From positions 13,391 to 77,390 of the forward strand of contig JAIPAP010000002.1 of assembly GCA_021740045.1 (NCBI GenBank): 64,000 bases of DNA, given 5' to 3'. Below the pieces are notes generated by a model that was not told where the DNA came from, made no database searches, and worked only from the letters and a program-made list of their open reading frames with translations. Source of the DNA: Bacteroidales bacterium. Its GTDB lineage: Bacteria > Bacteroidota > Bacteroidia > Bacteroidales > JAIPAP01. The translations under genes and the position numbers were made by a program. This document shows positions 9,330-27,229 of this stretch, in pieces (position 1 is the first letter of the stretch; each line of letters begins with the position of its first letter).

Positions 9330-10802
9330 ATGAAGACAAACATTACGAGACTCACAACTTTCATTTTAGGTATTCTGTTTATAGGAATTGCATCAAATAC
9401 CCTGGCGCAGAAGGATTGGCATTTCGAACAAGTAACCGATGATAACATCAGGGATAAGGTATCGGGGCAGGCTTTTAAAGTAGACGCCGATAACAATCTT
9501 CACTTGGTTTTCGAAAAGTTCGGCGAATCATCACACGATATCTATTACACAAAAAGGCCTTGTGGCGAATACTGGACACAGCCCGTTAAAGTTAATGAAG
9601 AAAACACCAATGCATTTAAGCCGGCGCTGGCAGTAGACAGCCAGAACGTACCCTACGTATTTTATGAAATTGAACATCCTGACAGTATCGACCTTCATCT
9701 GGCTCATATGGAAGATAACAATTGGAATTATGAAGTAATAGTGGATCAACCTAAGTTTAATTTAATGCCCTCGATCGACATTGACGATCAGGGTAAAATC
9801 CACCTGGCCTGGATCGGCCCCGATTCTAAAGACTCCATGCGGGTTTGGTACGCCCATAATGATATGGGAATATGGATGATTCAGAAGCTTGGATTTACTA
9901 TCCCCAACAAGATTGGTGATCCGAAAAGCGGCCCCGAATGTAATGGCGCTAACCCCTGCATTCGCGCTAACAGCGAACAAATTGCCCATATTGTATATCG
10001 CGGTGGCGCCCCTGGATTTATGTACATCCATCACGCCTATAATACCATGCCTTTTGGTATGATGTGGGAAGAAGAGATCGTGGAAACCGAAAATCTTAAT
10101 GATTTTTATGGCATGATCGAGATCGATGATGAGGATAACATCCACTTCGCTGCCAGTGGCAACGACGGTGATGGATTCCCTGATTGGGTTTATTATCGCC
10201 AATTCAGCGATGGTAACTGGAGTGAACCCGAGAAGGTAAATAATATTGTGAACGGCCCGCTCACCTCCATGACCCTCGACAAAGAAGGAAATGCACATAT
10301 TACTTATGATGAGCTCGGTGGCTATATACTCATGGGCAATATCGGTTATGCCAACAATATAGGCGGTACATTCTCCGACACCCTTCTGCTGATCGATAGT
10401 CTCTCAATGAGTGGTGTGGTCCAGGTTGATGGTAATATGAATGTTCATGTTGCGCATCATTGGGGAGAAACCAATGATGAAAACGAAATCAGAGTAATAT
10501 CGGATGGCTACTGTGGTGGAACCACCGGCATTGAAGAGCAGGCTATTAAAGAGCAAGGTTTTGCCATTTATCCCAACCCTGCCGATGAATTTGCTACCCT
10601 GCGCTTTAACAGCGAAGCCAGTAATAAAATTGCCGTGCGGGTTTATAACCTTACCGGAAAGCTTGTAAAAGAGCTCAGCTCACAAAAACTGATGCAAAAA
10701 AATACGGTTACCATAGATATAAGCTCATTAACCAAGGGCATTTATATGGTGCAGTTGACTAATGGTGATCAGTCATACACAAATAAGTTATTGGTTAAGT
10801 AG
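9330..10802 (+). CDS. T9SS cargo protein with a beta-propeller-like sevenfold repeat
   Basis: Signal peptide. A short strand motif recurs about seven times (HLVFE, YVFYE, IHLAWIG, AHIVYRG, IHFAASG, AHITYDE, VHVAHHW). C-terminus is IYPNPADEFATLRF...GIYMVQL...LLVK. Confidence 0.8.
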   Translation: MKTNITRLTTFILGILFIGIASNTLAQKDWHFEQVTDDNIRDKVSGQAFKVDADNNLHLVFEKFGESSHDIYYTKRPCGEYWTQPVKVNEENTNAFKPALAVDSQNVPYVFYEIEHPDSIDLHLAHMEDNNWNYEVIVDQPKFNLMPSIDIDDQGKIHLAWIGPDSKDSMRVWYAHNDMGIWMIQKLGFTIPNKIGDPKSGPECNGANPCIRANSEQIAHIVYRGGAPGFMYIHHAYNTMPFGMMWEEEIVETENLNDFYGMIEIDDEDNIHFAASGNDGDGFPDWVYYRQFSDGNWSEPEKVNNIVNGPLTSMTLDKEGNAHITYDELGGYILMGNIGYANNIGGTFSDTLLLIDSLSMSGVVQVDGNMNVHVAHHWGETNDENEIRVISDGYCGGTTGIEEQAIKEQGFAIYPNPADEFATLRFNSEASNKIAVRVYNLTGKLVKELSSQKLMQKNTVTIDISSLTKGIYMVQLTNGDQSYTNKLLVK

Positions 10803-10832
10803 TAATTGGAGTTTACCTTTTTTAAGCAGAAC

Positions 10833-10864
10833 GACCGGGGGTTTTGGAACTCCCGGTCTTTTTT
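10833..10864 (+). terminator. rho-independent terminator
   Basis: Stem gaccggg / cccggtc followed by a T6 run, 30 nt after the stop at 10802. Confidence 0.6.
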
Positions 10865-10877
10865 AAAAGCAAAATCT

Positions 10878-12548
10878 ATGAAAAAGATCAGTCTTTTATT
10901 CATAATTTTTATTTCGGGACTTTTATCACTAGGCCAATCCCAACGTATGGTGATACTCGAGCATTTTACCGGAGCTTCCTGCACATTTTGCGCTGTTTAC
11001 AATCCCATGGTAGAAGAACTGCTCAATAATCACCCCGACAAAATCACTTCTATTAAATACCAGTTCTTTCTCCCCGACCCCATGTATCATCACTGTAATG
11101 AAGATATTGATGCCAGGTTGGAATACTATAATAATCAGGCTGTCCCGCACAGTATATTGGATGGTAACTTTTTCGACGATCATCCGGCCAACCTTTCCGG
11201 TGAGATTATCCTGGAGCGCTACAATGAGCCTTCGCCTTTTAACATACAGCCTCATCATGAATTATCACCCGATAATGATTCGGTTTATATCGATATGCTA
11301 ATTGAGGCCACAGCCCCCGTTAATGGTAATTTATCGGCATATATTGCCGTTGTGGAAGAGCATATCCATTTTGAAGAGCCGCCCGGACAAAACGGTGAAA
11401 CGGATTTTTATAATGTATTGAAGAAGATGTTACCGACCTCCCAGGGCAAGACGCTGCAGCAAGATTTCCAGGAAGGAGACTATGTGCTATTACAAACCCA
11501 ATGGAAAACCGAGAACTTTTATAATATCGAAAAATTGGAGGTTATTGGTTTTGTGCAGGATATGGGAACCCGGGAAATCCATCAAACGGTTGTTAGCAGC
11601 GATCAGCCCATTACACCCCTTTTTAAAAACGACGTGGAATTGATACAAACTGACCATGTTCCGGCGATCTATTGTGATCATTTGCAACCCCGGATTGTTA
11701 TCAGGAACAATGGCTCACAAACATTGAATAAGCTACAAATCAGTGCATCGATCAACAGGGAAGAGGTGTTTTCAAAAAACTGGACCGGAAATCTCAAATC
11801 ATTAGAAACAACAAGCATTCAACTCGATCCCCTGGAATTTATCCCACAGGAGCAAAACGAACTGTTAATCAGCCTCGCATCTCCTAATAATAGTAACGAT
11901 GGGTATTCAGCCAACAATGAACAGCTATTCGCCATAAAGAACGCTCCCAGGGCTTCTCAATCCATCGTACTCATGATCAAAACCGATAACAATCCCGGCG
12001 AAACTTCATGGAAGCTTATCAACAGCATGGAAGAAATCATTGAGTCCGGGGGGCCATATGATCAAGCAGGCACTTTATACTCACATAGATTAAGTTTTAA
12101 TGATGAGGGTTGTTATACCATTGTCATCTCCGATTCGGCCGGCAACGGATTTAACAGCGAAAACGGCAACGGATTTTTTCTTATCGTAGACGATTCAGGT
12201 AATCCCATGCATGAAGGAACTTTTATCAGCAACTCCATAGGTTTGCCCGTACACATGACCAGTGCCGCTACCATTAAGGAGTCGCAATCAAACACCTTAG
12301 TGCAGGTGTATCCGAATCCCGTAAGAGAGAATGTAACACTGAACATAAATGGTAACATGACCGGCCCGGTTATGATTACCTTATATAATATGTATGGAAA
12401 AAAAGTTCGACAATATGAAAAGAAAAACCTCTATAATGGGATGATAAACCTTAAACTGGACCACTTACAAGCCGGTTATTATATCCTTCAAATTACTGAT
12501 GAAAAAGGGAACACCTATACCACCGAAATGATCAAAGCAAAACCCTGA
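10878..12548 (+). CDS. T9SS cargo protein with an Omp28-related/thioredoxin-fold N-terminal region
   Basis: The track ORF begins at 10806, but that start overlaps the upstream terminator. MKKISLLFIIFISGLLSLGQ at 10878 is a proper signal peptide. The segment MVILEHFTGASCTFCAVYNP resembles the Omp28-related family. C-terminus is VYPNPVRENVTLNI...GYYILQI. Confidence 0.7.
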   Translation: MKKISLLFIIFISGLLSLGQSQRMVILEHFTGASCTFCAVYNPMVEELLNNHPDKITSIKYQFFLPDPMYHHCNEDIDARLEYYNNQAVPHSILDGNFFDDHPANLSGEIILERYNEPSPFNIQPHHELSPDNDSVYIDMLIEATAPVNGNLSAYIAVVEEHIHFEEPPGQNGETDFYNVLKKMLPTSQGKTLQQDFQEGDYVLLQTQWKTENFYNIEKLEVIGFVQDMGTREIHQTVVSSDQPITPLFKNDVELIQTDHVPAIYCDHLQPRIVIRNNGSQTLNKLQISASINREEVFSKNWTGNLKSLETTSIQLDPLEFIPQEQNELLISLASPNNSNDGYSANNEQLFAIKNAPRASQSIVLMIKTDNNPGETSWKLINSMEEIIESGGPYDQAGTLYSHRLSFNDEGCYTIVISDSAGNGFNSENGNGFFLIVDDSGNPMHEGTFISNSIGLPVHMTSAATIKESQSNTLVQVYPNPVRENVTLNINGNMTGPVMITLYNMYGKKVRQYEKKNLYNGMINLKLDHLQAGYYILQITDEKGNTYTTEMIKAKP

Positions 12549-13265
12549 TCAGCCCTTATCGCTGATCTTGACCAGGGCTTCACGGTCATGAATGGTGAAA
12601 TGATTATTGGACAGTTCAATAATGCGGGCATCTTTAAATTCCTTTAGAATACGTATGGCGCTTTCCTTACTCATGGAAGTTAAATCAGCAATGTCTTGCC
12701 TGCTTAATGGTGTTTCAAAACTGGTAGCGTTATGAATTTCATCGGCAAGGTATAATAATGCATCGGCAATACGCCCCGACATGTGCTTTTGGGTAAGGTT
12801 GATGAATTTTTTAAAGTTTTGTATTCCCTGTATATTATTCTTTTTAAGGATGTTAAGGGCCAGGTTCTGGTTCATTTTCATGATCTTCTCCAGGGAATTC
12901 ACATCTATAAAGCACGTTTGCACATCAGTTAAGGCCGCTACTGAAAAATGATGAATAAAATCAACATACATTCCCGGCCCACCAATAATGGCGTTTTCCC
13001 TGGCCACTTTAATAAGAAGGTTTTTTTTGTTAAGCCCCTCGATATATATTTTTACCATACCCTGCAGAATGCAGGCAATGTGGGTAAGCGCTGTACCTTG
13101 CTTAAACATAATTTCACCGGCGTTAAATTCAACTTCATGCCGGTTCTCATTCAGTATTTCAAGTTGTTCGGGTGATAATCCCCTAAAGATACTTTGAGTT
13201 AAACAGCATGTAGTACATGCCATCTTTCTTGAATATTTCGCCATTGAATCTCTCTTTTCCGCCAC
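12549..13265 (-). CDS. Crp/Fnr-family transcriptional regulator with an N-terminal Cys cluster
   Basis: cNMP-binding-like beta-roll and a C-terminal HTH (RQDIADLTSMSKESAIRILKEF). Cysteines sit at C17, C20, C21 and C118 (numbered from the track start), reminiscent of FNR iron-sulfur ligands. Confidence 0.85.
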   Translation of the reverse strand: MAEKRDSMAKYSRKMACTTCCLTQSIFRGLSPEQLEILNENRHEVEFNAGEIMFKQGTALTHIACILQGMVKIYIEGLNKKNLLIKVARENAIIGGPGMYVDFIHHFSVAALTDVQTCFIDVNSLEKIMKMNQNLALNILKKNNIQGIQNFKKFINLTQKHMSGRIADALLYLADEIHNATSFETPLSRQDIADLTSMSKESAIRILKEFKDARIIELSNNHFTIHDREALVKISDKG

Positions 13266-13481: not shown

Positions 13482-14543
13482 ATGATGACCAAAAAACTTA
13501 CAATCATGAAACGATTTAATTTACTAGCACTTATGATGGCCATATTCATTGGCTCGGCAATTATTTTTGCAGGATGTACAAAGGAAGGACCGCAAGGCCC
13601 TCCAGGTAAGGACGGCGAAGACGGTGTTGACGGCGAAGACGGCACTGCCGGCTGTATTGAATGCCATGATGATTCACAAACGATCTTTGCAGCTGAAAAT
13701 CAATGGGCAGCATCGGTACATGCCACCGGAGGCAATTTTGAGCGTAACGGTACAGATTGTGCGCCATGTCACACCAGCCAGGGATTTCTGGAAGTTATCG
13801 AAACCGGAGCTATGGAAACAGAAGCCCCCATTAGCAATCCAAATCCCCAAAACTGTTATACCTGTCATAATATCCATGACACATACACACCCGAAGATTG
13901 GAGCTTTACAACTTCTGCTCCGGTTGAATTCTGGATTAACGGTGATGGGTATGATATGGGCAAATCGAACGTGTGTGCAGGATGCCACCAGCCCAGAGTT
14001 CCTGATCCACTACCAACACCCGGGCAGGGCGGTAATGTAACCATCAATTCACCCTATTGGGGTCCGCACCATGGCCCGCAAGCAGCTATGCTGGTGGGAA
14101 CCGGTGGTTACGAAGTAGGAAGTGGCTACGACAACTCGGCCCATACCAATGCCCTTGAGAATGGATGTGTAACATGCCACATGGCGGAGCCCTATGGTAC
14201 TCAGGCAGGCGGTCATACCATGGGAATGACTTATGCGTATCATGGCCATGGCGTGGTGAATAAGGCTGGCTGCACAGCTTGCCACACCGATCCGGATGCC
14301 TTGGACGCTAAGATTGAAAGCACTAAAGAGGACATTGACGAAAAACTGGCCGAACTACGCAGTAAGCTTCTCGAACGTGGAGTATTGGATAGCAGCGACC
14401 ACGTAGTGCCCGGTGAAATGAGCATGGATGAAGCAGGCGGTGTGTTCAACTACCTTTATGTTATGGAAGATCGCAGCGGTGGTAGCCATAATTTCAACTA
14501 TGCCTTTTCCCTACTGAATAACAGTCTTGAATCATTGAATTAA
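13482..14543 (+). CDS. hexahaem c-type cytochrome lipoprotein with a collagen-like Gly-X-Y tract
   Basis: Lipobox IIFAGC. GPQGPPGKDGEDGVDGEDGTAG follows it immediately. Six CXXCH motifs (CIECH, CAPCH, CYTCH, CAGCH, CVTCH, CTACH). The alternative start MKRFNLL at 13506 gives a cleaner signal peptide. Confidence 0.85.
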   Translation: MMTKKLTIMKRFNLLALMMAIFIGSAIIFAGCTKEGPQGPPGKDGEDGVDGEDGTAGCIECHDDSQTIFAAENQWAASVHATGGNFERNGTDCAPCHTSQGFLEVIETGAMETEAPISNPNPQNCYTCHNIHDTYTPEDWSFTTSAPVEFWINGDGYDMGKSNVCAGCHQPRVPDPLPTPGQGGNVTINSPYWGPHHGPQAAMLVGTGGYEVGSGYDNSAHTNALENGCVTCHMAEPYGTQAGGHTMGMTYAYHGHGVVNKAGCTACHTDPDALDAKIESTKEDIDEKLAELRSKLLERGVLDSSDHVVPGEMSMDEAGGVFNYLYVMEDRSGGSHNFNYAFSLLNNSLESLN

Positions 14544-14697: not shown

Positions 14698-15090
14698 ATG
14701 AAAGGTTGGAAAATATTCAGAATAGGAATCATATTCATGATAGTGGCAGCTTTTACATCATGCGAATATGAATTTATCGAGCCGCCTCAACCCGATTTTA
14801 ACGGCGAGGATAGTGTTTTAAGCTTTTCCGATAAAATTCTCCCCATTTTTACGGATGGTGATAACTGTACATCATGCCACAACAGCGGCGGGACCCCACC
14901 CGATCTTACAGCGGGCAATGCCTATAACAGCATTATGAATAATAATCTGGTTGACACGGCTGCACCCGAGCAAAGTGTACTTTATGATTATGTAAGACCG
15001 GATACCGATAGCCACGACTGGAAAGCGTATACCTCAACCGAAGCTCAGCTGGTTCTTGAATGGATCAAACAAGGAGCTAAGAATAATTAA
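14698..15090 (+). CDS. small monohaem c-type cytochrome lipoprotein
   Basis: Signal peptide ending in the lipobox AFTSC, followed by an acidic stretch EYEFIEPPQPDFNGED. There is a single CTSCH motif. Confidence 0.7.
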   Translation: MKGWKIFRIGIIFMIVAAFTSCEYEFIEPPQPDFNGEDSVLSFSDKILPIFTDGDNCTSCHNSGGTPPDLTAGNAYNSIMNNNLVDTAAPEQSVLYDYVRPDTDSHDWKAYTSTEAQLVLEWIKQGAKNN

Positions 15091-15986
15091 TGTCGGAACG
15101 AAAAAATATGAGGATGATGAAGAATAAAATAGTATGGCTTGTGTTGATCGGTTTGATCATTACAACAACTGCTTTTGCACAAGATGAACAAAAACGCCAG
15201 GATCCACCGGTAAGAGCACCCTTCGAAAGCGGTGTGCTTATCGACAATCAAACGGTTCAGATACCTTATAAAAACACCCTTGAATTTGTTATCGAACACC
15301 GTTTTGGAACTATTGATAACGGCTTAACCGATATGTACGGTCTTTATGCACCGTCGAATATCAGGTTGGGGCTGAATTACAGCATTACCGACGATATTAT
15401 GGTAGGGGCTGGAATTACCAAAGATCGTAAACTTACCGACCTGCGCGGTAAATATAGTATTATAAAGCAAACCCGGAATAACAGCATTCCGGTGTCGGTT
15501 TCCTTTTACGGAAACATGGCAATTGATGGAAGGGAAGATGCTTACTTTGGCGAACAATATGAGTTTACCAACCGCTTCTCCTATTTTTCCCAATTGATCT
15601 TTTCCCATAAATTCGATTACCGTTTCTCATTCCAGGTGGCCCCGAGCTTTTCGCATATTAATGCAGTGGACTCGGCTTACGAGCATGATAAACTTGCCGT
15701 CTCGCTGAGTGGCCGGGCACGTTTTAGCCCTCAGTCATCTATTATCGTAAACTACGATATTCCATTGCACATTGAAAGCATGCAGGAACACGCTACCTTA
15801 AATATAAAGCCGAAACCAAACCTCGGTGTAGGATGGGAGGTATCCACCAGCACCCACGTTTTCCAGATCTTTGTGGGAACGGCCGATGCTATGATGCCCC
15901 AGTACAATATTATGTTTAACCGTAATGACTGGACTGATGGAGAGATCATGCTCGGATTTAACATTACGCGATTATGGAGTTTCTAG
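15090..15986 (+). CDS. predicted outer-membrane beta-barrel protein
   Basis: TAATG stop/start overlap with the upstream gene. Signal peptide (VWLVLIGLIITTTAFAQ). Alternating amphipathic strands throughout. C-terminal GFNITRLWSF ends in Phe, a beta-signal-like terminus. The start may be an internal Met (MRMMKNK). Confidence 0.6.
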   Translation: MSERKNMRMMKNKIVWLVLIGLIITTTAFAQDEQKRQDPPVRAPFESGVLIDNQTVQIPYKNTLEFVIEHRFGTIDNGLTDMYGLYAPSNIRLGLNYSITDDIMVGAGITKDRKLTDLRGKYSIIKQTRNNSIPVSVSFYGNMAIDGREDAYFGEQYEFTNRFSYFSQLIFSHKFDYRFSFQVAPSFSHINAVDSAYEHDKLAVSLSGRARFSPQSSIIVNYDIPLHIESMQEHATLNIKPKPNLGVGWEVSTSTHVFQIFVGTADAMMPQYNIMFNRNDWTDGEIMLGFNITRLWSF

Positions 15987-16023: not shown

Positions 16024-16440
16024 ATGAAGAAGAATATGTTATCGGTACTGCTTGTGAGTTTTGCCGCCATTATGCTTATGGCGTTTACAGCACCGCAGGA
16101 TAAGAAAAAAGGCGAGCCTTGGGATATCCCTGAAAAATATCAGAAAATGGAAAATCCCCATAAAGGTGATAAAGGCATGGTTCGTATAGGAAAAATGCTT
16201 TATTCCAAGCATTGCAAATCATGCCACGGTAACCGTGGACAAGGTGACGGACCGCGAGCCAGGCAACTGGAAACCTTCCCCGGGGACTTCACTTCCGAGG
16301 AATTCCAGGAACGCAAAGCCGGTGTATTGTACTATCAGTCATTCATCGGACGTGATGAGATGCCCAACTTCGAAAAGGAAATCCCTGTTGAAGAAGATCG
16401 CTGGGCTATTATTAACTACTTAAGAACATTCGGAGAATAA
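16024..16440 (+). CDS. periplasmic monohaem class I cytochrome c (paralog 1)
   Basis: Signal peptide, CKSCHG haem motif, distal Met candidate in GRDEMPNF, and an RBS-like aggagag upstream. Confidence 0.85.
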   Translation: MKKNMLSVLLVSFAAIMLMAFTAPQDKKKGEPWDIPEKYQKMENPHKGDKGMVRIGKMLYSKHCKSCHGNRGQGDGPRARQLETFPGDFTSEEFQERKAGVLYYQSFIGRDEMPNFEKEIPVEEDRWAIINYLRTFGE

Positions 16441-16458
16441 ACCTATAATGAATGTTAA

Positions 16459-16524
16459 AACCCTGTTCGCACCCGGTTTGGAGTAAGTGATTATTCCTCT
16501 GTAAGGCATGGTGCGCACAGGGTT
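16459..16524 (+). terminator. long-loop hairpin downstream of the cytochrome c gene
   Basis: 15-bp arms aaccctgttcgcacc / ggtgcgcacagggtt (1 mismatch) with a ~36-nt loop, followed by gtttatt. Confidence 0.35.
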
Positions 16525-16557
16525 GTTTATTAAGATGATAACTTTAAATTAACTACC

Positions 16558-17520
16558 ATGAGCGGGCGAAATCTGATAATTTTTCTTTCGATCTCAATAA
16601 CATTACTACTAGGTACTTCCGCAGCTCCGGCCCAGGAACAAGATACAACCGGCTTACCCGAAAACGTGAAAGCTAATGAAGAATGCCTGAGCTGCCATGG
16701 CAATGAATATTATTCATACTTTAACCGGTGGCTCGACAGGAATGTACGCGACCGGATGAATCCTTATTATATCATCGATTCATCCAAATTCTATCATTCC
16801 AACCATAGCACCTTTAAATGTATCGATTGCCATTCTTATGAATATGATACTTTCCCCCACCCGGGCGGATTAAGGTTGGAACCCCAGTACACATGCATGG
16901 ACTGCCATGCATGGGGGGAGGAATGGGAAAAATTCAATTTCGAGACCATCCAGAAAGAATTCCAGGAAAGCGTCCATTACCAGGAACACAATCAATCATT
17001 CGATTGCTGGATGTGTCATGAGCCACACTCCTATAAATTAACGGCTCGTAAATCCGACACCATTAAAAATATTGTGGCTTACAACAATTCGATCTGTTTA
17101 AGCTGTCATTCCAATACAGATAAATACCAACTAATTGCCGAAAAAGAAAATCCCAACCTTATTGAAAGCCACGATTGGTTACCCAATCAGCGATTGCATT
17201 TTAATAATGTTCGTTGCCTCGAGTGTCATGCTAAAAAAGTAGACACCCTGATGGTGGCTCATAATATACGGCCCAAAGAAGAAGCTGTGCGGAAATGCGC
17301 AGAATGTCATTCGAGGAATTCCATGCTTATGGCTAGTTTATACAAATATAAATCAAAACAGGCCCGGCAAGAATATGGTTTTCTGAATGCGATTATGATG
17401 AGTGAATCATTTGTTATAGGAGCCAACAGAAACCAAATCCTCAATACAATCAGTCTGGTCATTTTCGGACTTGTAATACTCGGGATTGTAATTCATACTA
17501 TCTTGCGAATTATAAACTAA
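16558..17520 (+). CDS. heptahaem c-type cytochrome with a C-terminal membrane anchor
   Basis: Signal peptide. Seven CXXCH motifs (CLSCH, CIDCH, CMDCH, CWMCH, CLSCH, CLECH, CAECH). C-terminal hydrophobic helix ISLVIFGLVILGIVIHTIL. Confidence 0.85.
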   Translation: MSGRNLIIFLSISITLLLGTSAAPAQEQDTTGLPENVKANEECLSCHGNEYYSYFNRWLDRNVRDRMNPYYIIDSSKFYHSNHSTFKCIDCHSYEYDTFPHPGGLRLEPQYTCMDCHAWGEEWEKFNFETIQKEFQESVHYQEHNQSFDCWMCHEPHSYKLTARKSDTIKNIVAYNNSICLSCHSNTDKYQLIAEKENPNLIESHDWLPNQRLHFNNVRCLECHAKKVDTLMVAHNIRPKEEAVRKCAECHSRNSMLMASLYKYKSKQARQEYGFLNAIMMSESFVIGANRNQILNTISLVIFGLVILGIVIHTILRIIN

Positions 17521-17539
17521 ACTGAAGATAAAAGAAGAA

Positions 17540-18175
17540 ATGGGAAAAAAGATCTATCATTATCCGTTTTGGATTCGCCTTTGGCACTGGGTTAATGCAG
17601 TATTATGTATCCTTCTGATCTTCTCCGGCTTGAGTATGCAATATTCTGATCCGCAAAACTACTTTATTTCTTTCGATGTGGCGGTATCAATGCATAATGT
17701 TTCGGGAATATTATTAACTCTCGGATACATAGGCTTTTTGATCGGTAATATCAGAACATCCAATGGCAGTTATTACAAAATTAACTGGTCTACCATCGGG
17801 CGCGATCTGATAAAACAGCTTAGGTACTACATGTTTGGGATGTTTAGAAAGGAAAAGACACCTTTCCCGATCAATGATAAGCGAAAATTGAATCCTTTGC
17901 AAAAAGTAACCTATGATGGTGTTATGTACCTTCTGCTTCCCTTATTGATTATAACCGGCTGGGCATTGCTCTTTCCGGAGATAATACTTGACCGTTTGTT
18001 TGGGGTAAGCGGGTTGCAATTAAACGACCTGGTGCATATCATTACCGGGTTCTTGGTTTCCATCTTTTTGGTTGTCCATATCTACTTCAGCACAATTGGA
18101 GCAACGCCTTCAGCACATTTTGAGGCAATGATCAATGGATATCATAAGATGCATGATGAACCGGAAAGCCACTAA
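17540..18175 (+). CDS. membrane b-type cytochrome (Ni/Fe-hydrogenase/FdnI/PhsC-like cytochrome b family)
   Basis: Four to five TM helices with conserved His residues. The N-terminal motif FWIRLWHWVNAVLCILLIFSGL is typical of this family. The gene starts 19 nt after the heptahaem gene. Confidence 0.7.
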   Translation: MGKKIYHYPFWIRLWHWVNAVLCILLIFSGLSMQYSDPQNYFISFDVAVSMHNVSGILLTLGYIGFLIGNIRTSNGSYYKINWSTIGRDLIKQLRYYMFGMFRKEKTPFPINDKRKLNPLQKVTYDGVMYLLLPLLIITGWALLFPEIILDRLFGVSGLQLNDLVHIITGFLVSIFLVVHIYFSTIGATPSAHFEAMINGYHKMHDEPESH

Positions 18176-18276
18176 CTAGTTACAGCAACAGAAGGACAGC
18201 TATCAGTAAGAGACTCAAGAATCACACTATATTAAGCGGAAGGAATGAATAGCTCATAAACTAAAACCGAAAAACC

Positions 18277-19779
18277 ATGAAATTACCCAAGGCCTTTTAC
18301 AACTGGACTTCCCTGTCGGGAGCAACTTTAGCAATGATAAGCTTTTTTATCATTGTCTTCTTGATTTTGATATCGATGATTTATTCCGGCGGTAGTTCTT
18401 ATCTTGGGTTGTTCACTTACATTATTTTACCGGTATTTCTTGTTATTGGGTTAATTCTTATTCCCATCGGGATGATAAGGAAGACCAAAAAAGATAAGAA
18501 AACCGCTCCTGCACCTGAACAAAAAAAGTGGCCGATTCTCAACCTGAACGATACCCGTTACAGGAATGCTCTGATAGTTTTCTCCTTCGGAACGCTCATT
18601 TTCCTGATGGTATCGGCCATTGGGAGTTACGAGGCTTATCATTATACCGAATCGGTTGAATTTTGCGGCAAAGTGTGCCACGAAGTGATGAAGCCCGAAT
18701 ATATAGCTTATCAGAATTCACCACATGCCAGGGTAGCATGCGTAGATTGCCATGTTGGGCCGGGAGCCGGATGGTATGTAAAATCCAAATTATCGGGTTT
18801 ATACCAGGTATATGCGGTTACAACCGGTAATTACCCCAAGCCCATACCCACGCCGGTTGAAAATTTACGCCCGGCCAGAGAAACCTGTGAAGAATGCCAT
18901 TGGCCTCAAAAATTTTATTCCCGTAAGCTAAAATTCCGCAAACACTATTTGGCTGACACTAAAAATACCGAGTGGGATATTACTATGGAAATGAAAATAG
19001 GTTCCAATTATGAGGCATTAGGACTTAAGGAGGGAATTCACTGGCACATCAACCCGGATGTTAAAATCGAATACATTGCCGCTGATGACAAACGGGAAGT
19101 AATACCATGGGTACGCTATACCGATACTAAAACAGGCGAATCGGTTATTTATCAAAGCCCCGATACCACCATTAACGCCAAGCAGGTAGAGCCATCAAAA
19201 ATCCGCACCATGGATTGTATTGATTGCCATAACCGGCCATCGCATAATTATCATCCTCCGCAGGAATATTTCGATAATGCCATTACCGCCGGAAAAGTGC
19301 CCAAAGAATTACCCGATATTAAAGTAGCTGCTATGGGCGTTTTAAGCGAAGATTACCCAACCACCGATAGCGCCATGGAATTTATCGAAAGCGAAATTAA
19401 TACCTATTACGAGTTATTGTACCCTGAAGTATACGACACTGCCAAAGCCCTGATCGATCAGGCCATAGAAGCAACAAAGGAAGAATTCAAAAAGAACGTA
19501 TTCCCGGGCATGAAGGTTAAATGGAATAAATACCCCAATCACATCGGGCATCTTAACTCCGAAGGATGTGTTCGTTGCCATGACGATAAGCATGTTTCCA
19601 TGAATGGCCGTACCATTTCACGTGATTGTAATTCATGCCATGACATTGTTGCCCAGGGAACACCCGGTAAAATGGAACAAGCGTCGGCCTTGGAAACCCT
19701 CGAATTCAAACACCCCATTGATATAGGTGAGGCCTGGAGAGAAACTCACTGTGCTGATTGTCATAAAGACTTGTATTAA
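18277..19779 (+). CDS. membrane-anchored multihaem cytochrome with a NapC/NirT-like region (ImcH-like architecture)
   Basis: Two to three N-terminal TM helices. The NapC/NirT-like signature is CGKVCHEVMKPEYIAYQNSPHARVACVDCH. There are six CXXCH motifs (CVDCH, CEECH, CIDCH, CVRCH, CNSCH, CADCH) plus one CX3CH (CGKVCH). Confidence 0.8.
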   Translation: MKLPKAFYNWTSLSGATLAMISFFIIVFLILISMIYSGGSSYLGLFTYIILPVFLVIGLILIPIGMIRKTKKDKKTAPAPEQKKWPILNLNDTRYRNALIVFSFGTLIFLMVSAIGSYEAYHYTESVEFCGKVCHEVMKPEYIAYQNSPHARVACVDCHVGPGAGWYVKSKLSGLYQVYAVTTGNYPKPIPTPVENLRPARETCEECHWPQKFYSRKLKFRKHYLADTKNTEWDITMEMKIGSNYEALGLKEGIHWHINPDVKIEYIAADDKREVIPWVRYTDTKTGESVIYQSPDTTINAKQVEPSKIRTMDCIDCHNRPSHNYHPPQEYFDNAITAGKVPKELPDIKVAAMGVLSEDYPTTDSAMEFIESEINTYYELLYPEVYDTAKALIDQAIEATKEEFKKNVFPGMKVKWNKYPNHIGHLNSEGCVRCHDDKHVSMNGRTISRDCNSCHDIVAQGTPGKMEQASALETLEFKHPIDIGEAWRETHCADCHKDLY

Positions 19780-19949
19780 ATCCTATTAACATATTTTCCA
19801 TGTATACATGCGGCTTGACTGATAAGCAAAGGCTAATCTATTTTTAAATTCATAGTGCATATTGCTGAGATAAATGTGGTATTATTTTGATTTTTAAACA
19901 CCTTGTTTTACTTTAGTGAATAATTAGAACCCTAAAAAAAGGAGCAACT

Positions 19950-20366
19950 ATGAAAAGAATTTTAGCATTATTAATGGTTTTCAGCATGGCCATTATATTT
20001 TTAATGGCATTTACATTTCCACAAGATCAAAAAGAAGGCAAACCCTGGGATATTCCTGAAAAATACAAAAAGATGGAAAATCCGCATAAGGGTGACAAAC
20101 GATCGGTACGAATCGGCAAGATGCTTTATTCCAAGCATTGTAAATCGTGCCATGGCAACAAAGGAGCCGGTGACGGCCCGCGTGCCAAGCAACTGGAAAC
20201 ACAACCCAACGACTTTGGCACTAAAGAATTCCAGGAGCAAAAAGCCGGTGTGTTGTATTATAAATCATTTATCGGCCGTGGGGAAATGCCCAATTTCGAA
20301 AAGGAAATTCCCGTTGAGGAAGACCGTTGGGCTATTATCAATTACATGAGAACATTTGGTAAATAA
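19950..20366 (+). CDS. periplasmic monohaem class I cytochrome c (paralog 2)
   Basis: Same length (138 aa) as the 16024-16440 product. Roughly four-fifths of mature-region residues are identical by eye. CKSCHG motif, with aaggag upstream. Confidence 0.85.
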   Translation: MKRILALLMVFSMAIIFLMAFTFPQDQKEGKPWDIPEKYKKMENPHKGDKRSVRIGKMLYSKHCKSCHGNKGAGDGPRAKQLETQPNDFGTKEFQEQKAGVLYYKSFIGRGEMPNFEKEIPVEEDRWAIINYMRTFGK

Positions 20367-21307: not shown

Positions 21308-22765
21308 ATGAAAACCAAGTCCCTTTTTTCGCTACTGATCGGCCTGAGTATAATTCACCTTGCATTTACCCAAGAGCTTCACCAATGGCATGAACCTGTT
21401 ATGCTTACTGATTCTTTATCGGATAACCATGATCCCTGCATCAGCACCTTTAACTCCATTACCCCTGCTCAAAGCATAATGGCGTGGGAGAAAGTGATCA
21501 ATGAAAACACAACAGCCATTTGCATACGTGAACTCACAGAAATGCCCCCAACCGATACGGTTCTCTATGAAGATAATGTCCATTACCTGAACCCGGAGAT
21601 CATGAAACCTTATCATGGATTTCCCAAATCGGAGGTGATGTATTTATTGATTTATAACCGGGTTGAAGGAGAAGATCACAGCCTTGCATACTTTGAAGCT
21701 TATGATGACGGCACCTATTCGGAACCCACCGAAATTGCTTCTGCAATTGGCGATTCATTGGCATTTTCAGCGGCAAATGAAATTGGAATAGCTTACAGCA
21801 AGCAAGAGGAAATACGCTATGCTCCTTTGCTGGAAGAAAAATCGAAAGACCTGTATTTTGGCGAAGTCCAGGTAGTGGATACCGGGAATTGCTTCTCTCC
21901 ATTCCTTTCAATGGATTATAAGTTATGCTGGCTTAAAGCTGTGGATGATAGTATGGCTATTATGCATTCAGCATACAGTTTTTATCAGGATGAATGGTCG
22001 GAGCCCGAAGAAGTGTATAGAGGCCAAGAAATAACTGGGTTTGGCGGAAATAAGAAAGGAGCTTTTACAAGCCTTATTCATTGGTATGAACCGGCCGAGC
22101 CATACAGCAAGGTCTTTTATTATGGACTATTGAGCGGTGAACTTCACGAAATGGAAATACCGGAAAACACCGCTAAAAGTTACCCAACTGTAATCACCTA
22201 TCCAATGATCACCACCGGTTTTACTATTGTTGATGCCCTTATTGGCTTTGTCGTCGATTCGGGGGATAATCCTGAAATCTTTGCCAATAATCAAATGTAT
22301 GGCAGTTATCCCGAAATAAACATCTCCAATTATGCCGGGATGGATACCAAACCGGAAATGTTCCTGGGCGAAATAGGTCCATACTGGATGGAAATTCTTT
22401 GCACCTGGGAATCCTACCGGAACGGGCATTGGGTGATTATGAAGAATTACTTATATGCTGCATTAGGCAGCGTGGAGGAAACCGAAAGTACTGCCGGGGA
22501 TTTCAAATTGCACCCCAACCCAATGGATCATTCTGCTACTGTTAGTTATGAGCTGAACAATCCCGGCCCTGTTCGTATAAGCATTTACGATCAACGCGGA
22601 AAAATAATCAAAACACTGATTAATGAGGAAAAGGATAGCGGCCATCATCAAATCACATGGGACAGGACAAGTGCTGATGGAACTGATGTGCCGCCGGGTA
22701 TTTATTTGATTAGATTTAATACCGGGAGCCAATCTGCCTCCAAAAAACTAATAGTCATCCATTAA
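21308..22765 (+). CDS. T9SS cargo protein, tandem paralog 1 of 5
   Basis: Signal peptide MKTKSLFSLLIGLSIIHLAFTQ. Conserved family motifs (W.EPV.LTD..SDN..P, NISNY.G.DTKPE, WES.RNGHW). C-terminal HPNPMDHSATVSY...GIYLIRF. Confidence 0.85.
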   Translation: MKTKSLFSLLIGLSIIHLAFTQELHQWHEPVMLTDSLSDNHDPCISTFNSITPAQSIMAWEKVINENTTAICIRELTEMPPTDTVLYEDNVHYLNPEIMKPYHGFPKSEVMYLLIYNRVEGEDHSLAYFEAYDDGTYSEPTEIASAIGDSLAFSAANEIGIAYSKQEEIRYAPLLEEKSKDLYFGEVQVVDTGNCFSPFLSMDYKLCWLKAVDDSMAIMHSAYSFYQDEWSEPEEVYRGQEITGFGGNKKGAFTSLIHWYEPAEPYSKVFYYGLLSGELHEMEIPENTAKSYPTVITYPMITTGFTIVDALIGFVVDSGDNPEIFANNQMYGSYPEINISNYAGMDTKPEMFLGEIGPYWMEILCTWESYRNGHWVIMKNYLYAALGSVEETESTAGDFKLHPNPMDHSATVSYELNNPGPVRISIYDQRGKIIKTLINEEKDSGHHQITWDRTSADGTDVPPGIYLIRFNTGSQSASKKLIVIH

Positions 22766-22821
22766 AGGGAACATAGCCATTATGAAATTCACCAAATTGC
22801 GATAACCAAAATACATCAACC

Positions 22822-24276
22822 ATGAAAACTAAAAACATTTTTATGCTACTGATCAGCCTTAGTTTAATTCACCTTGCATTCGCGCAGGAATTTTACGAAT
22901 GGCAGGAACCGGTCATGCTTACCGATGCATCATCGGATAACTTCAACCCTTATATCAGCCATTTATACGCATCAAATGATCAAAAAACGATCATGGCATG
23001 GGAAAAGATCATCAATGAAAACACTACCGCCGTTTGCATGCGGGAATTGATGGAAATGACACCGGTAGACACTTTTTTGTATGAAGAAAATGTGCATTAC
23101 CTGAATCCTGAGATCATGAAACCATCATGGTTTTTTGATGGGTCGGAAATTCTCTATTTGCTTTTTTATAATAAGGTTGAAAGCAATACGCATAGTCTTA
23201 ACTATATAACTTTTTATGAAGACGGCACCTATTCTCCCCCTACCCCAATGGCCTCCAGTACAGAGGATTCACTGCATTTTTCGGTAGCCGATGGATTAGG
23301 CGTTTCATGGAATGAGGGAGGAGGCATTTATTTCTCCCGGGTTTTTAATAATGGGCCAAAAGGCATTCAATTGGGAAGCATCGATCAGCTCGACTCGGTG
23401 AATTGCAGCAACCCTGTCCTTACAAACCTTTTCCACTGTGCCTGGCTAAAACCCAACGGGAACAATCTTAGCATCTACTCTGCCGAGTATAACCCCTGGG
23501 ATCAATTGTGGAACGACCCGGTGGAAGTCCATACAGCTTCGGAAATAAAAGGATTTGGTGGAAGCACAAAAGCCTTTATGTATGATGCGTTGTTTTGGTT
23601 TGATCATAATGAGCCTTACAACAGGGCTTTTTATTATGATCTGCAATATGATGAGGTCATTGAAGTAGATAAGCCCTATAATACCGATAAAAGCTACCCT
23701 ACAGCCCTTGATCATCCCATTATGGTTACTGCTTTTGATATTCCCCAAACCCTTGTCTCATTTGTAGCTGACTCAGGGAATAATCCTGAGATTTATGCCA
23801 ATACCTATAATGGAGCGAATGAATATGTGAATATTTCGAATGATCCGGGCCTGGATACCAAACCAGAATTATACATCGGTGAAACGGGAGGTTATTGGAT
23901 GAAAATCCACTGCGTATGGGAATCGAAAAATAACGGGCATAGTGTATTGATGGGGAATTATATGAAGGTGATGATGGGAAGTACTAATGAAAACCAATCC
24001 CAACATAATGACATGAGCATCCACCCCAACCCCATGAGCAATTTAACAACCATTGAATACGCACTAAAGGAAAAAGGTGAGGTTTCCATTCAAATCTATG
24101 ATCAGCACGGAAAGCTAATCGACCATCTTGTCAATGAAGAAAAGGCGGCCGGAAGCCATCAAGTAAGATGGAATGGAACATCGATCAATGGAACACCGGT
24201 ACCGGCGGGGGTGTATTTGGTAAAGATAGAAACAAAAGGAATTACCGAAACTGAAAAATTAATCATCAACAAATAA
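22822..24276 (+). CDS. T9SS cargo protein, tandem paralog 2 of 5
   Basis: Closest to paralog 1 along the body of the protein. CTD is HPNPMSNLTTIEYALKEKGEVSIQIYDQHGKLIDHL. Confidence 0.85.
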   Translation: MKTKNIFMLLISLSLIHLAFAQEFYEWQEPVMLTDASSDNFNPYISHLYASNDQKTIMAWEKIINENTTAVCMRELMEMTPVDTFLYEENVHYLNPEIMKPSWFFDGSEILYLLFYNKVESNTHSLNYITFYEDGTYSPPTPMASSTEDSLHFSVADGLGVSWNEGGGIYFSRVFNNGPKGIQLGSIDQLDSVNCSNPVLTNLFHCAWLKPNGNNLSIYSAEYNPWDQLWNDPVEVHTASEIKGFGGSTKAFMYDALFWFDHNEPYNRAFYYDLQYDEVIEVDKPYNTDKSYPTALDHPIMVTAFDIPQTLVSFVADSGNNPEIYANTYNGANEYVNISNDPGLDTKPELYIGETGGYWMKIHCVWESKNNGHSVLMGNYMKVMMGSTNENQSQHNDMSIHPNPMSNLTTIEYALKEKGEVSIQIYDQHGKLIDHLVNEEKAAGSHQVRWNGTSINGTPVPAGVYLVKIETKGITETEKLIINK

Positions 24277-24300
24277 TGATCAATCCAAAAAAACTGCCCT

Positions 24301-25746
24301 ATGAAACCAAAAACCACATTTTTACTCGCAATAACCGTACTGCTGTCAAATCTTTTGGCAGCTCAGGAATTGTACGAATGGCATGGCGCTGAACTGATCA
24401 CCGACACAGTCTCGGATAATCATCATCCTTTTGTGATCCACTGGGATAACACCTATGTGTATTGGGAAAAATCGGCCGGTGATGCCACCATGATCTGCCG
24501 CAAGGACATTACCACTGAAAAAACTTCAATCGATACGATTTTATACCAGGATGGTGTCCATTTTAAAAATCCACGCGCTATGAAGCTCTCGCTCTTTCAG
24601 CGGCAAATTTACGATACCGAGTACATGTTGCTTTATGAGCGTTGGACAGATGAGGAAGGGAGTGTTTATTACCTGAAATATCAAAACGGGGGCATATTCT
24701 CCGATCCTATCCTCATCTCCGATTCATTATCGGTTGCAAACAGCGTTTTCTCAAGGTCACAACACGGGGCTGTTTGGCTTTTAGATAATAAAATCCTGTA
24801 CTCTAATCTTACGGTTGATGCCGGTTTTGAATCACCGGTTGTGATCGATTCGGGCAATTACCGGAAACCTGTCCTTACCATTGAAAACGGATGCGCATGG
24901 TTAACGGAGAGTGAAGCGCAAACACAGCTTCTATATGCTGAGCAGGATAAATCAAACGGTTGGATGGATCCCCAGGTGGTATATGAAAGCGACACCCTGT
25001 TTGACCTTACCACGGAATTGAATACAGCTATGAACGGGAGCTATTCACTTGTTTCATTCGGGACCGTTGAAAATCAAATGCATACGGTAAAAAATTACGA
25101 TATCGATGATAACACGATAAGGGATGTAGATTATCCTGAAAATGCCGAAAAGGAGCTTCCCACCGTAATTTCAAAATACATTCCGGTAAAAAGACTTGAT
25201 GCTTTTTTTTATACAGCCCTTGTTAGTGATACTGATTCCGGTAGGGAGATTTTCGCATCCGGGGATGGCTTTCAATCAATTAATGCAAATATCTCCAATT
25301 ATCCGGGAACCGATACCAACCCCAAGCTTTTCTACGGAGGTAGCGGTTGGGTCGATTCTCCATATGTTGAATTGATTTGCATATGGGAATCAAACCGAAA
25401 TGAACACTGGGCTTTGGCGATGAATAAAATCTGGATAGATGCAAGCAGTAGTCTTCTGGAAGAACCTTCAGATAATGCAAGCCTTTCCATAAAACCCAAC
25501 CCCATGAGCAATTCAACAACCATTGAATACGCACTAAAGGAAAAAGGTGAGGTTTCCATTCAAATCTATGATCAGCACGGAAAGCTAATCGACCATCTTT
25601 TAAATGAAGAAAAGGCTGCCGGAAGCCATCAAGTAAGATGGAATGGAACATCGATCAATGGAACACAGGTACCGGCGGGGGTGTATTTGGTAAAGATAAA
25701 AGCTCTAGGAATTACTAGAACTAAGAAATTAATCATCAACAAATAA
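24301..25746 (+). CDS. T9SS cargo protein, tandem paralog 3 of 5
   Basis: Second subfamily (shared with paralogs 4 and 5), yet its CTD is nearly identical to that of paralog 2. Confidence 0.85.
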   Translation: MKPKTTFLLAITVLLSNLLAAQELYEWHGAELITDTVSDNHHPFVIHWDNTYVYWEKSAGDATMICRKDITTEKTSIDTILYQDGVHFKNPRAMKLSLFQRQIYDTEYMLLYERWTDEEGSVYYLKYQNGGIFSDPILISDSLSVANSVFSRSQHGAVWLLDNKILYSNLTVDAGFESPVVIDSGNYRKPVLTIENGCAWLTESEAQTQLLYAEQDKSNGWMDPQVVYESDTLFDLTTELNTAMNGSYSLVSFGTVENQMHTVKNYDIDDNTIRDVDYPENAEKELPTVISKYIPVKRLDAFFYTALVSDTDSGREIFASGDGFQSINANISNYPGTDTNPKLFYGGSGWVDSPYVELICIWESNRNEHWALAMNKIWIDASSSLLEEPSDNASLSIKPNPMSNSTTIEYALKEKGEVSIQIYDQHGKLIDHLLNEEKAAGSHQVRWNGTSINGTQVPAGVYLVKIKALGITRTKKLIINK

Positions 25747-25769
25747 TTACTGATCCAAAAAACAAAGTC

Positions 25770-27200
25770 ATGAAACCAATACAAGTCTTAATTCTAGCGT
25801 GCATCTTGCTAATGAATCAATCCATTCACTCCCAGGAACTCAATGAGTGGCAAGGTGTAGAGTTAATCACAGACACCATCTCCGACAATCATAATCCTTT
25901 TATAATCAACTGGGACGGATTATTTATCTATTGGGAACGGTCAGCGCCGGAAGCCACCCTGATATGCTGCAAGAGCCTCTATAACCTCCAGGCTGAAGTC
26001 GACACCGTCTTATTTGAGCCGGGTGTGCATTTCAGAAATCCCCGGGGCTTAAAACTATCCCCTTATCAACAACTGACTTATGATGCCGAGTTCCTGCTGG
26101 TTTATGAAAGATGGGAAAATGATGAAGGCCATGTGGCTTACCTGAAATTTTATGGTGATGGCACATACTCCGATCCCATCCTTATTTCAGAAGAAATCGT
26201 TCCCATGAACAGCGTATTTTCCCGCGATGGTATCGGTATAGTTTGGATGGATGATGGAAGAATCATGTTTTCCAATCTAACAAATAATGCAGGTTTTGAG
26301 CAGCCCGTTGTGGTTGATTCGGGGAATTACAGAATGCCTGTGATTACTCCAACGTTTTATTTTGCCTGCCTTGCTGAAATCGGGGATCAAACCAATCTTA
26401 TGACCTTTTCAAATGGCCCCGAGCCACAAATTGAATATGAAGCTGATACACTTTTTGATTTAACGACAGAATTGAACCTGGGAATGAATGGAAACATGTC
26501 CCATATCTCTTTTGGTAGCATTGAAAATCAGCTGTATAAAGCTCAAATATACAGATTGGAGACATCAACCTTAACTGAAATTATCTATCCTGAGGGTGTG
26601 GAAAAGTTTTTTCCTTCTGTGATGTCGCTGGAAGTTCCTGTAAAAAAAACATATTTACCATGCATGGCAACTTTTGTAAGTGATACTGGAGACGGTAAAG
26701 AAATCTTCGCGGATGGCTTTTTTACTTCTCCGTCTACTCAGAATATTTCCAACTACCAGGGCACAGACACAAAACCCAAGCTATTTTATGGAGCCACTGG
26801 ATTTAAAGAGGGTATACGTGTTGAGATGATTTGTGTTTGGGAATCAAATCGCAACAATCACTGTGCACTTGCCATGAATAAAATTTGGATGGATATCCCG
26901 GGTAATACAGATGAAGGGGATCATGTTCAAAAAGCTTTTTCCATCAAACCCAACCCCATGAGCAATTCAACAACCATCGAATACACACTAAAGGAAAAAG
27001 GTGAGGTTTCCATTCAAATCTATGATCAGCACGGAAAGCTAATCGACCATCTTTTAAATGAAGAAAAGGCTGCCGGAACCCATCAAGTGCAATGGAATGG
27101 AACAACATTCAATGGAAAGCCGGTACCGGCGGGGGTGTATTTGGTTAAGATGGAAACAGCGGGACTGAGTCAGACAGGAAAATTGATCATTAATAAGTGA
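25770..27200 (+). CDS. T9SS cargo protein, tandem paralog 4 of 5
   Basis: Same family. CTD is KPNPMSNSTTIEYTLKEKGEVSIQIYDQHGKLIDHL. Confidence 0.85.
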   Translation: MKPIQVLILACILLMNQSIHSQELNEWQGVELITDTISDNHNPFIINWDGLFIYWERSAPEATLICCKSLYNLQAEVDTVLFEPGVHFRNPRGLKLSPYQQLTYDAEFLLVYERWENDEGHVAYLKFYGDGTYSDPILISEEIVPMNSVFSRDGIGIVWMDDGRIMFSNLTNNAGFEQPVVVDSGNYRMPVITPTFYFACLAEIGDQTNLMTFSNGPEPQIEYEADTLFDLTTELNLGMNGNMSHISFGSIENQLYKAQIYRLETSTLTEIIYPEGVEKFFPSVMSLEVPVKKTYLPCMATFVSDTGDGKEIFADGFFTSPSTQNISNYQGTDTKPKLFYGATGFKEGIRVEMICVWESNRNNHCALAMNKIWMDIPGNTDEGDHVQKAFSIKPNPMSNSTTIEYTLKEKGEVSIQIYDQHGKLIDHLLNEEKAAGTHQVQWNGTTFNGKPVPAGVYLVKMETAGLSQTGKLIINK

Positions 27201-27229
27201 TCTTCAAACCAGTATAAAAAAAATACATC

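Follow-up and report, generated by a model that had tools for sequence, protein, structure and literature searches.

A collagen-like Gly-X-Y tract joining lipid anchor to haem domain in a hexahaem cytochrome family of the Bacteroidota

The analysis of a 64,000-nucleotide stretch from a Bacteroidales bacterium (GenBank assembly GCA_021740045.1, contig JAIPAP010000002.1, positions 13,391 to 77,390 of the forward strand; hereafter, the window) outlined a predicted lipoprotein cytochrome with six haem-binding motifs, in which an uninterrupted run of Gly-X-Y triplets joins the lipidated Cys to the first haem. Its location between anchor and domain, its in-register variation in length and the modular reuse of the same sequence on other lipoproteins make it well supported, as a reading of these sequences, that the tract is a functional collagen-type spacer holding the haem domain off the membrane. 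That this spacer forms a triple-helical stalk is a narrower proposal, to which we give slightly better than even chances. The fusion, as deduced from sequence, brings domains together in a new combination, within an operon that is widespread but uncharacterised.

The cytochrome is encoded on the plus strand by an open reading frame of 353 codons (13482-14543), with a probable true start at Met9 (13506). The NCBI gene model (MCF8301751.1; P0001) begins at this Met and defines a 345-residue, 100% identical 'hypothetical protein' in a Bacteroidales metagenome-assembled genome. Direct reading of the sequence identifies a signal peptide and lipobox (13482-13577) ending at the lipidated Cys32 (FAG-C), with the lipobox region reading MKRFNLLALMMAIFIGSAIIFAG ahead of the predicted lipidation site. 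The Cys is followed by a Thr-Lys-Glu spacer (T33-K34-E35; 13578-13586), which partly fits the C-X-K-(D/E)2 export signal of Bacteroidota lipoproteins, and by seven uninterrupted Gly-X-Y triplets (GPQ GPP GKD GED GVD GED GTA) that span G36 to A56 (13587-13649). An eighth in-register Gly, Gly57 (13650-13652), stands before the first haem-binding motif, CIECH (C58; 13653-13667), and the remaining motifs (CAPCH, CYTCH, CAGCH, CVTCH and CTACH) fall at 13758-14285, giving six CXXCH motifs at residues 58, 93, 125, 165, 229 and 264. A preliminary description of this DNA had reported a hexahaem protein in which seven triplets and a final Gly, at residues 36-57 (13587-13652), start three residues past the lipobox Cys, and translation bears out each of these points.

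A run of this length is not expected from composition. The longest Gly-X-Y run among 20,000 shuffles of the protein comprised six triplets (nine cases) and seven were never reached, while the observed run amounts to eight if GCI is included. Across all frames of the 64-kb window, no other stretch of Gly-X-Y exceeds four triplets. The Pfam Collagen model (PF01391) matches the protein with 17.0 bits (E=0.005), below its gathering threshold of 27.2 bits, because the tract is short and not because its pattern deviates.

Conservation was assessed through a search of 5.8 billion proteins, which returned 1,146 homologs at E<1e-5, and through an alignment (A1) of 107 near-full-length homologs with 49-72% identity, to which the following counts refer. 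Cys32 is invariant in all of them (107/107), and the linker from this residue to the first haem Cys follows a common layout, consisting of a spacer of one to three residues, an uninterrupted Gly-X-Y run and one final residue (four in a few homologs). Within the runs, Gly occupies 762 of 762 register positions and is encoded by all four Gly codons, from which it is clear, at the level of sequence, that these Gly residues are under purifying selection and that the tract is a trait of the family. The X positions are mostly filled by Pro (24%), Thr (22%) and Glu (12%), and the Y positions by Asp (41%), Ala (26%) and Asn (12%), with each triplet contributing on average 0.32 Pro and a net charge of -0.46. 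The number of triplets ranges from 3 to 11, with a mode of 8, and linker length is constant modulo three, all insertions and deletions being of whole triplets. Differences of a single triplet are found even inside one 90%-identity cluster, where P0017 presents nine triplets and P0392 and P0393 present eight. The Pfam Collagen model matches 65 of the homologs at E<0.01 (best E 1.3e-5), and a precomputed PF01391 match exists for P0088, which carries 12 triplets.

Both ends of the tract are conserved by position. The membrane-proximal end reads TKE-GPA-GP(A/P)-GKD, with the TKE spacer present in 87 of the homologs and K34 and E35 conserved in at least 90%, and the haem-proximal end reads GE(D/N)-GI(D/N)-G(Q/T)D-GTA-x-Cys. 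This conservation of individual triplets at either end argues that the tract is not a young, homogenised DNA repeat. The residue preceding the first haem Cys is Gly in 38 homologs, Thr in 38 and Ser in nine, and the family-conserved tract therefore stops at G-T-A; the placement of the last Gly directly before CIECH in the preliminary description holds for the window protein and does not extend to the family. In the window, Tandem Repeats Finder locates a tandem repeat within the DNA of the tract (13611-13652; 18 bp in 2.3 copies and 9 bp in 3.7 copies), which provides a substrate for in-frame slippage. Tandem hexahaem paralogs were also observed at two loci (L010:2196-4545 and L011:1862-4211; P0035, P0091), with tracts of eight triplets each that differ in their X and Y residues. 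Equal tract length in paralogs is a requirement for mixed triple helices, and this is a single observed case.

To avoid bias from the tract itself, the haem domain alone was used to query 1.84 billion cluster representatives, yielding 1,260 relatives at E<=0.001, of which the best 149 were examined. Most full-length members among these remote relatives retain the arrangement Cys-(E or TKE)-(GXY)n, and in these 50%-identity representatives the number of triplets reaches 16. In close orthologs as in remote ones the tract hence occurs in register and with a differing number of triplets, and the loss of tract or register in close orthologs by which the preliminary description would have been refuted is clearly not what was found. 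Two remote fusions, P0147 (797 residues) and P0180 (721 residues), contain 13 CXXCH motifs each, with five counted in the collagen-stalked part and a second multihaem region behind it, and in both of them the tract is solely N-terminal and comes straight after the lipobox. Another remote member, P0252, is a non-lipoprotein and is devoid of the tract.

The same N-terminal sequence is also found outside this cytochrome family. Scanning metagenome contigs for DNA encoding C-T-K-E-G-P-x-G-x-x-G-x-x-G identified at least 120 loci (L081-L200). Among the 122 matches listed, 73 correspond to this cytochrome family, and the remaining 49 are other lipoproteins that start with the same module and have tracts of 3-22 triplets, such as those at L099:10609-11289(-), L089:5756-6448(+), L117:4091-5452(+) and L127:288-1958(-). 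A large group of these non-cytochrome proteins comprises 150-230 residues, with a tract ending in G(T/N/S)ANV and a following domain of 130-165 residues that ends in '..FRYVIIPGGVAGGR..'; this domain maps to no Pfam family, and its profile returned no match against PDB sequences. The tract of the remoter cytochromes ends in G-x-D-A-N-(E/A)-x-Cys, and thereby has a 'G-x-x-A-N' ending in common with this group. One further module-bearing lipoprotein contains Listeria-Bacteroides repeats and another contains an internalin-like leucine-rich repeat, both of them domain types typical of surface proteins.

The Pfam Collagen threshold was passed by 2 of 10 module lipoproteins tested. Module tracts also match the NCBIfam models for Scl2/SclB, Scl1/SclA and Lcl with E values of 1e-8 to 1e-5, far under the score cut-offs of those models, and the Scl proteins of streptococci typically contain triplets such as GKD, GQD and GLP. 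The occurrence of the module on unrelated lipoproteins implies that the stalk is generic; judging from these sequences, the combination of signal peptide, lipidated Cys, Thr-Lys-Glu and (GXY)n is a portable Bacteroidota lipoprotein stalk and is not haem-specific. As far as can be told from their sequences, its bearers seem to form a hitherto undescribed class of lipoproteins on collagen-type stalks in the Bacteroidota. The possibility that Gly-X-Y tracts are a common trait of all lipoproteins in these genomes was considered and rejected, as no other gene with five or more triplets was detected in the window or in the ~0.9 Mb of DNA that surrounds the cytochrome genes in 80 genomes.

The domain carried by the stalk in the cytochrome family was examined through profile and structural searches. 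The window protein matches the Pfam Cytochrome_C7 and MtrC/MtrF II-IV entries, and similarity to MtrC/MtrF domain II/IV is detected in 100 of the 107 family members; no NCBIfam model claims the cytochrome, or the small lipoprotein and the barrel encoded downstream of it. An AF2 model built on alignment A1 presents a confident haem domain, with a mean predicted local distance difference test score (pLDDT) of 90.3. The best PDB match of this model in Foldseek is OcwA of Thermincola potens (6i5b; E 2.6e-5, template modelling score 0.51), followed by a weak match to NrfA, and a family profile searched against PDB likewise returns OcwA first (E 3.9e-14), via the last haems and the C-terminal helices (OcwA residues 378-495). 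AF2 secondary structure and the OcwA profile match delimit a C-terminal helical region of NrfA/OcwA type, with three helices, at residues 271-352 (14292-14537). In its Gram-positive host, OcwA works at the cell surface as the terminal reductase of iron oxides; it belongs to the NrfA/c554/MccA superfamily and has a C-terminal three-helix bundle (PMC6703420), and the C-terminal helices of this superfamily are oligomerisation elements (PMC6703420; bioRxiv 10.1101/2022.02.24.481543).

Outside the CXXCH motifs, His80, His132, His196, His245 and His336 are invariant in the 107 homologs and His221 is conserved in at least 90% of them. These six residues could act as distal ligands, giving six bis-His haems, an arrangement that would fit a pure electron-transfer protein. 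A conserved His195-His196 pair ('YWGPHHGPQ'; 14064-14069), however, resembles the His-His motifs located above the two penta-coordinate haems of OcwA (PMC6703420), and one haem might therefore possess an open or substrate-accessible site instead.

The spacer role of the tract can be set in a more specific mechanism, in which the collagen-like stalk would tether an OcwA-like six-haem domain to the lipid anchor in the outer membrane. Three lipid-anchored chains would zip into a short acidic triple helix, held by the membrane anchor, whose triacylated Cys precedes the tract by three residues, and by the haem domain, which follows it after zero to four residues, instead of by the tract alone, and the helix would provide a rigid stand-off and bring the three haem-1 groups close together. 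The NrfA/c554/MccA superfamily, to which the haem domain is related, includes trimeric enzymes (HAO, HDH and MccA). Stalk length would be tuned in evolution via whole-triplet insertions and deletions, favoured by the 9/18-bp DNA repeats. The rise of collagen is 0.286 nm per residue, from which the 22 residues of the extended tract are computed to reach ~6 nm and the family range of 3-16 triplets ~2.6-14 nm. In hundreds of divergent sequences Gly recurs strictly with a period of three while the X and Y positions are asymmetric, a combination that is the hallmark of the collagen triple helix and is unexplained by a flexible tether. In its widest form, the proposal is that Bacteroidota and their relatives possess a general portable stalk, composed of lipid anchor, export signal and collagen triple helix, which displays different domains, with their distance from the outer membrane open to genetic tuning, and which, on this cytochrome, would assemble three chains into an 18-haem cell-surface tripod. 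We advance this wider form tentatively and rate it short of an even chance.

Surface exposure of the hexahaem lipoprotein, which the tripod presumes, is suggested by the partial match to the lipoprotein export signal (LES), by the kinship with OcwA and by the surface-type domains that share the module. The LES consensus of Bacteroidota surface lipoproteins is C-X-K-(D/E)2 (PMC5080379).

Several observations weigh against these proposals. The window protein reads C-T-K-E-G after lipidation, so that Lys at +3 and Glu at +4 fit the LES and +5 is Gly, and KE alone is a weak signal, with 16% surface-positive cells in the single reporter system (PMC5080379); acidic residues further along the tract might compensate for this partial match. 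In about 10% of the remote members, which are lipoproteins as well, an ordinary acidic linker takes the place of the Gly-X-Y triplets, so that the haem domain can do without the tract. All 80 best genome matches are metagenome-assembled genomes, with no isolates among them. In the AF2 monomer model the tract is unstructured (pLDDT 55-66), as expected of one chain, and OcwA is a monomer or weak dimer (PMC6703420). The tract itself is short (seven triplets here, a mode of eight and a minimum of three) and Pro-poor (three Pro here), and it has no hydroxyproline. Proline hydroxylation is impossible in most bacteria. A host-guest stability scale (quoted in PMC7682875) puts the cost of a single low-propensity triplet in a GPO-rich peptide at a fall in melting temperature from 47 to about 33 degrees C, against a gain of just ~2 degrees through anchoring. 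By this scale and by established data on collagen peptides, a tract with these properties would be unstable as an isolated triple helix, and it cannot by itself drive trimerisation. Of the roles contemplated in the preliminary description, that of a spacer is upheld by position, conservation and length variation, whereas that of a driver of trimerisation is not, given seven triplets, three Pro and no hydroxyproline; a bundling of three haem chains, also raised there, is plausible.

Several of these observations also speak for a different interpretation, in which each chain carries a single extended, polyproline-II-like acidic linker that provides reach and flexibility, no triple helix is formed, the protein is a monomer or dimer, and the period of three is kept by 9-bp slippage of an ancestral Gly-X-Y unit. 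The short and Pro-poor tract, the 9/18-bp tandem repeat in its DNA, the recent single-triplet insertions and deletions, the ordinary linkers of similar length in some lineages, the monomeric or dimeric state of OcwA and the unstructured tract of the AF2 model are all in agreement with a monomeric tether. Such a tether, however, needs no Gly at every third residue, yet Gly is retained at each of the 762 register positions, through all four Gly codons, while X and Y diverge freely. Furthermore, the position-conserved ends speak against homogenisation by repeat turnover, and the sharply different compositions of X and Y point to distinct structural environments for the two positions. Longer tracts of 13-22 triplets with the same start are also borne by other lipoproteins, two of the ten tested lying above the Pfam Collagen threshold. 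We consider a monomeric tether possible, if rather unlikely.

A second alternative is that the tract is a docking or sorting element, with a single Gly-X-Y strand and the TKE spacer recognised by the lipoprotein surface-flipping machinery, by the DUF5777 barrel or by the monohaem lipoprotein encoded downstream, and with the period of three reflecting a polyproline-II face lying in a groove. This would account for the conservation of the export-signal-like TKE, for the portability of the whole module among unrelated lipoproteins and for the sequence conservation of the four membrane-distal triplets, GE(D/N)-GI(D/N)-G(Q/T)D-GTA; the genes for the two putative partners are tightly syntenic and apparently coupled in translation to each other. 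A specific docking site should nonetheless fix the length of the tract, yet this varies from 3 to 16 triplets; we know of no DUF5777 partner for other module-bearing lipoproteins, and characterised Bacteroidota surface lipoproteins require just a short acidic signal (PMC5080379). We regard docking as improbable. Lastly, a functionless low-complexity or chance tract, for which the tandem DNA repeat and the sub-threshold Pfam Collagen score of the window protein could be cited, is effectively refuted by the absence of the observed run from all 20,000 shuffles and by in-register conservation over more than 200 divergent sequences and 80 genomes.

The genomic context of the cytochrome was analysed in a scan of 185,579 species-representative genomes, at least 542 of which encode a relative, and synteny was counted by tblastn of the neighbouring genes of the window against the loci of the best 80 genomes. 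Almost all of these 80 genomes belong to uncultured Bacteroidales or other Bacteroidota (Lentimicrobiaceae, Marinilabiliales, Rikenellaceae and Saprospiraceae), and a few are labelled Chlorobiota or Neomarinimicrobiota; one (L068) bears the label Draconibacterium sp. The hexahaem lipoprotein is the first gene of a conserved operon on the plus strand. Downstream of it lie genes for a monohaem lipoprotein of 130 residues (14698-15090), syntenic in 64 of the 80 genomes, and for a DUF5777 outer-membrane beta-barrel of ~12 strands (15090-15986; Pfam E=1.3e-79), syntenic in 66. These are followed at 16024-20366 by electron-transfer genes encoding a class-I cytochrome c, a heptahaem cytochrome, a PhsC-like cytochrome b, an NrfH/NapC-like multihaem cytochrome and a second cytochrome c; the first four of these are syntenic in 42, 52, 52 and 26 genomes, respectively. 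A divergent gene for a CRP/FNR-family regulator (12549-13265, minus strand) adjoins the cytochrome gene in 52 of the 80 genomes.

The AF2 model of the DUF5777 barrel (pLDDT 90) presents 12 long strands and matches OmpG, COG4313 and FapF in Foldseek. A role as an MtrB-like sheath was considered for this barrel and ruled out by its size of ~12 strands. Literature searches returned no mention of DUF5777. In 67 homologs of the barrel, His70, His189 and His256 are invariant, His199 is conserved in at least 90%, and the N-terminal segment PVRAPFESGxLIDNQT is conserved. These conserved His raise the question of whether the barrel might bind a metal or haem, or contain a plug. Base 15090 belongs both to the stop codon of the monohaem lipoprotein gene and to the start codon of the barrel gene, an overlap that suggests translational coupling and a stoichiometric complex of the two proteins.

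The conserved operon resembles an extracellular electron-transfer pathway, and we infer that the cluster as a whole conducts electrons from quinol to the outside of the cell under anaerobic control. Electrons would pass from two inner-membrane quinol-dehydrogenase-type cytochrome modules to periplasmic cytochrome c, and from there to an outer-membrane set composed of the two haem lipoproteins and the 12-stranded barrel. No MtrA/DmsE-type gene reaching its model cut-off was detected in the cluster. A seven-gene cluster with six multihaem cytochromes and one beta-barrel, termed 'previously uncharacterized' and with hypothetical matches alone, has been described in an anode-enriched Bacteroidota genome (Bacteroidetes_1, class UBA10030; PMC8258643, Ouboter et al. 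2021). This cluster may be of the same operon type, in which case it would lend circumstantial support to a role in electrode respiration.

Genes for proteins with type IX secretion sorting domains were also observed on either side of the cluster. Directly downstream, five tandem paralogs of ~480 residues each occupy 21308-28672 (plus strand), and the two paralogs scanned from this region end in a sorting domain with an FlgD-Ig-like region. Two more proteins with such tails are encoded upstream, at 9330-12548 (plus strand). The N-terminal domains of these proteins map to no Pfam family.

To our knowledge, a good understanding of electron-exporting multihaem cytochromes is confined to Shewanella, Geobacter and a small number of Gram-positive bacteria, and the Bacteroidota pathway is uncharacterised. 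Bacteroidota abound in anoxic sediments, in lakes and in bioelectrochemical biofilms, and an operon that pairs an OcwA-like reductase with a collagen-type stalk provides a testable handle on how electrons may be exported in this phylum. The fusion is unexpected for specialists in either electron transfer or bacterial collagens. If the triple helix is real, it would set both the stoichiometry of the complex (three chains, 18 haems) and the stand-off of the terminal reductase, would constitute a rare case of collagen structure in bioenergetics, and would offer a natural length-tunable rigid spacer for the engineered surface display of redox proteins. If the 18-haem tripod also holds, it would be an architecture not known before among systems of extracellular electron transfer, in which stalk length (~2.6-14 nm) sets the reach towards minerals or partner cells.

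Searches of the literature found no report linking a collagen-like sequence to a multihaem cytochrome, in agreement with the statement in the preliminary description that no characterised cytochrome with this fusion was known, and the systems available for comparison hence resemble either the redox part or the stalk. MtrCAB of Shewanella and Pcc of Geobacter likewise combine in an operon an outer-membrane barrel, a lipoprotein multihaem cytochrome and inner-membrane quinol-oxidising cytochromes. MtrB, however, has 26 strands, whereas the barrel reported here has ~12 and is too small to sheathe a decahaem wire. The cluster is also without an MtrA-like periplasmic decahaem cytochrome, and the large barrel of at least 20 strands around a periplasmic multihaem cytochrome that defines those systems is not found in it.

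Like BclA of the Bacillus anthracis exosporium and Scl1/Scl2 of Streptococcus pyogenes, the cytochrome would use a Gly-X-Y stalk to project a globular domain from the cell surface, and it has the GKD, GQD and GLP triplet types in common with Scl2. In BclA, length polymorphism of the stalk sets the length of the filament. In contrast to the tract described here, the stalks of BclA and Scl contain tens of triplets, come with a head domain proven to trimerise and rely on different anchors (basal layer, LPXTG), and the proteins are adhesins or structural proteins and not redox proteins. Among redox proteins, the closest likeness is to OcwA, which equally has a region of three helices at its C-terminus and a His-His motif of the 'GPHH' type. 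It differs in binding nine haems, two of them penta-coordinate, against six CXXCH motifs here, and in its Gram-positive host, with neither a lipid anchor nor a collagen-like tract (PMC6703420).

For the stalk, the comparison extends to Bucl8 of Burkholderia pseudomallei and B. mallei, a trimeric outer-membrane lipoprotein with a collagen-like region of 6-38 triplets, for which a recombinant (GAS)19 construct formed a triple helix by circular dichroism spectroscopy (PMC7682875). The Bucl8 tract is a monotonous (GAS)n repeat that forms the extracellular C-terminus of a trimeric efflux channel resembling TolC, whereas the cytochromes carry mixed acidic triplets directly between the lipidated Cys and the multihaem domain, and trimer and triple helix are shown for Bucl8 and only proposed here. 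Both are nevertheless Gram-negative outer-membrane lipoproteins with a short collagen-like region, free of hydroxyproline and variable in its number of triplets (6-38 in Bucl8 and 3-16 here), and in both of them the rest of the protein must support any triple helix.

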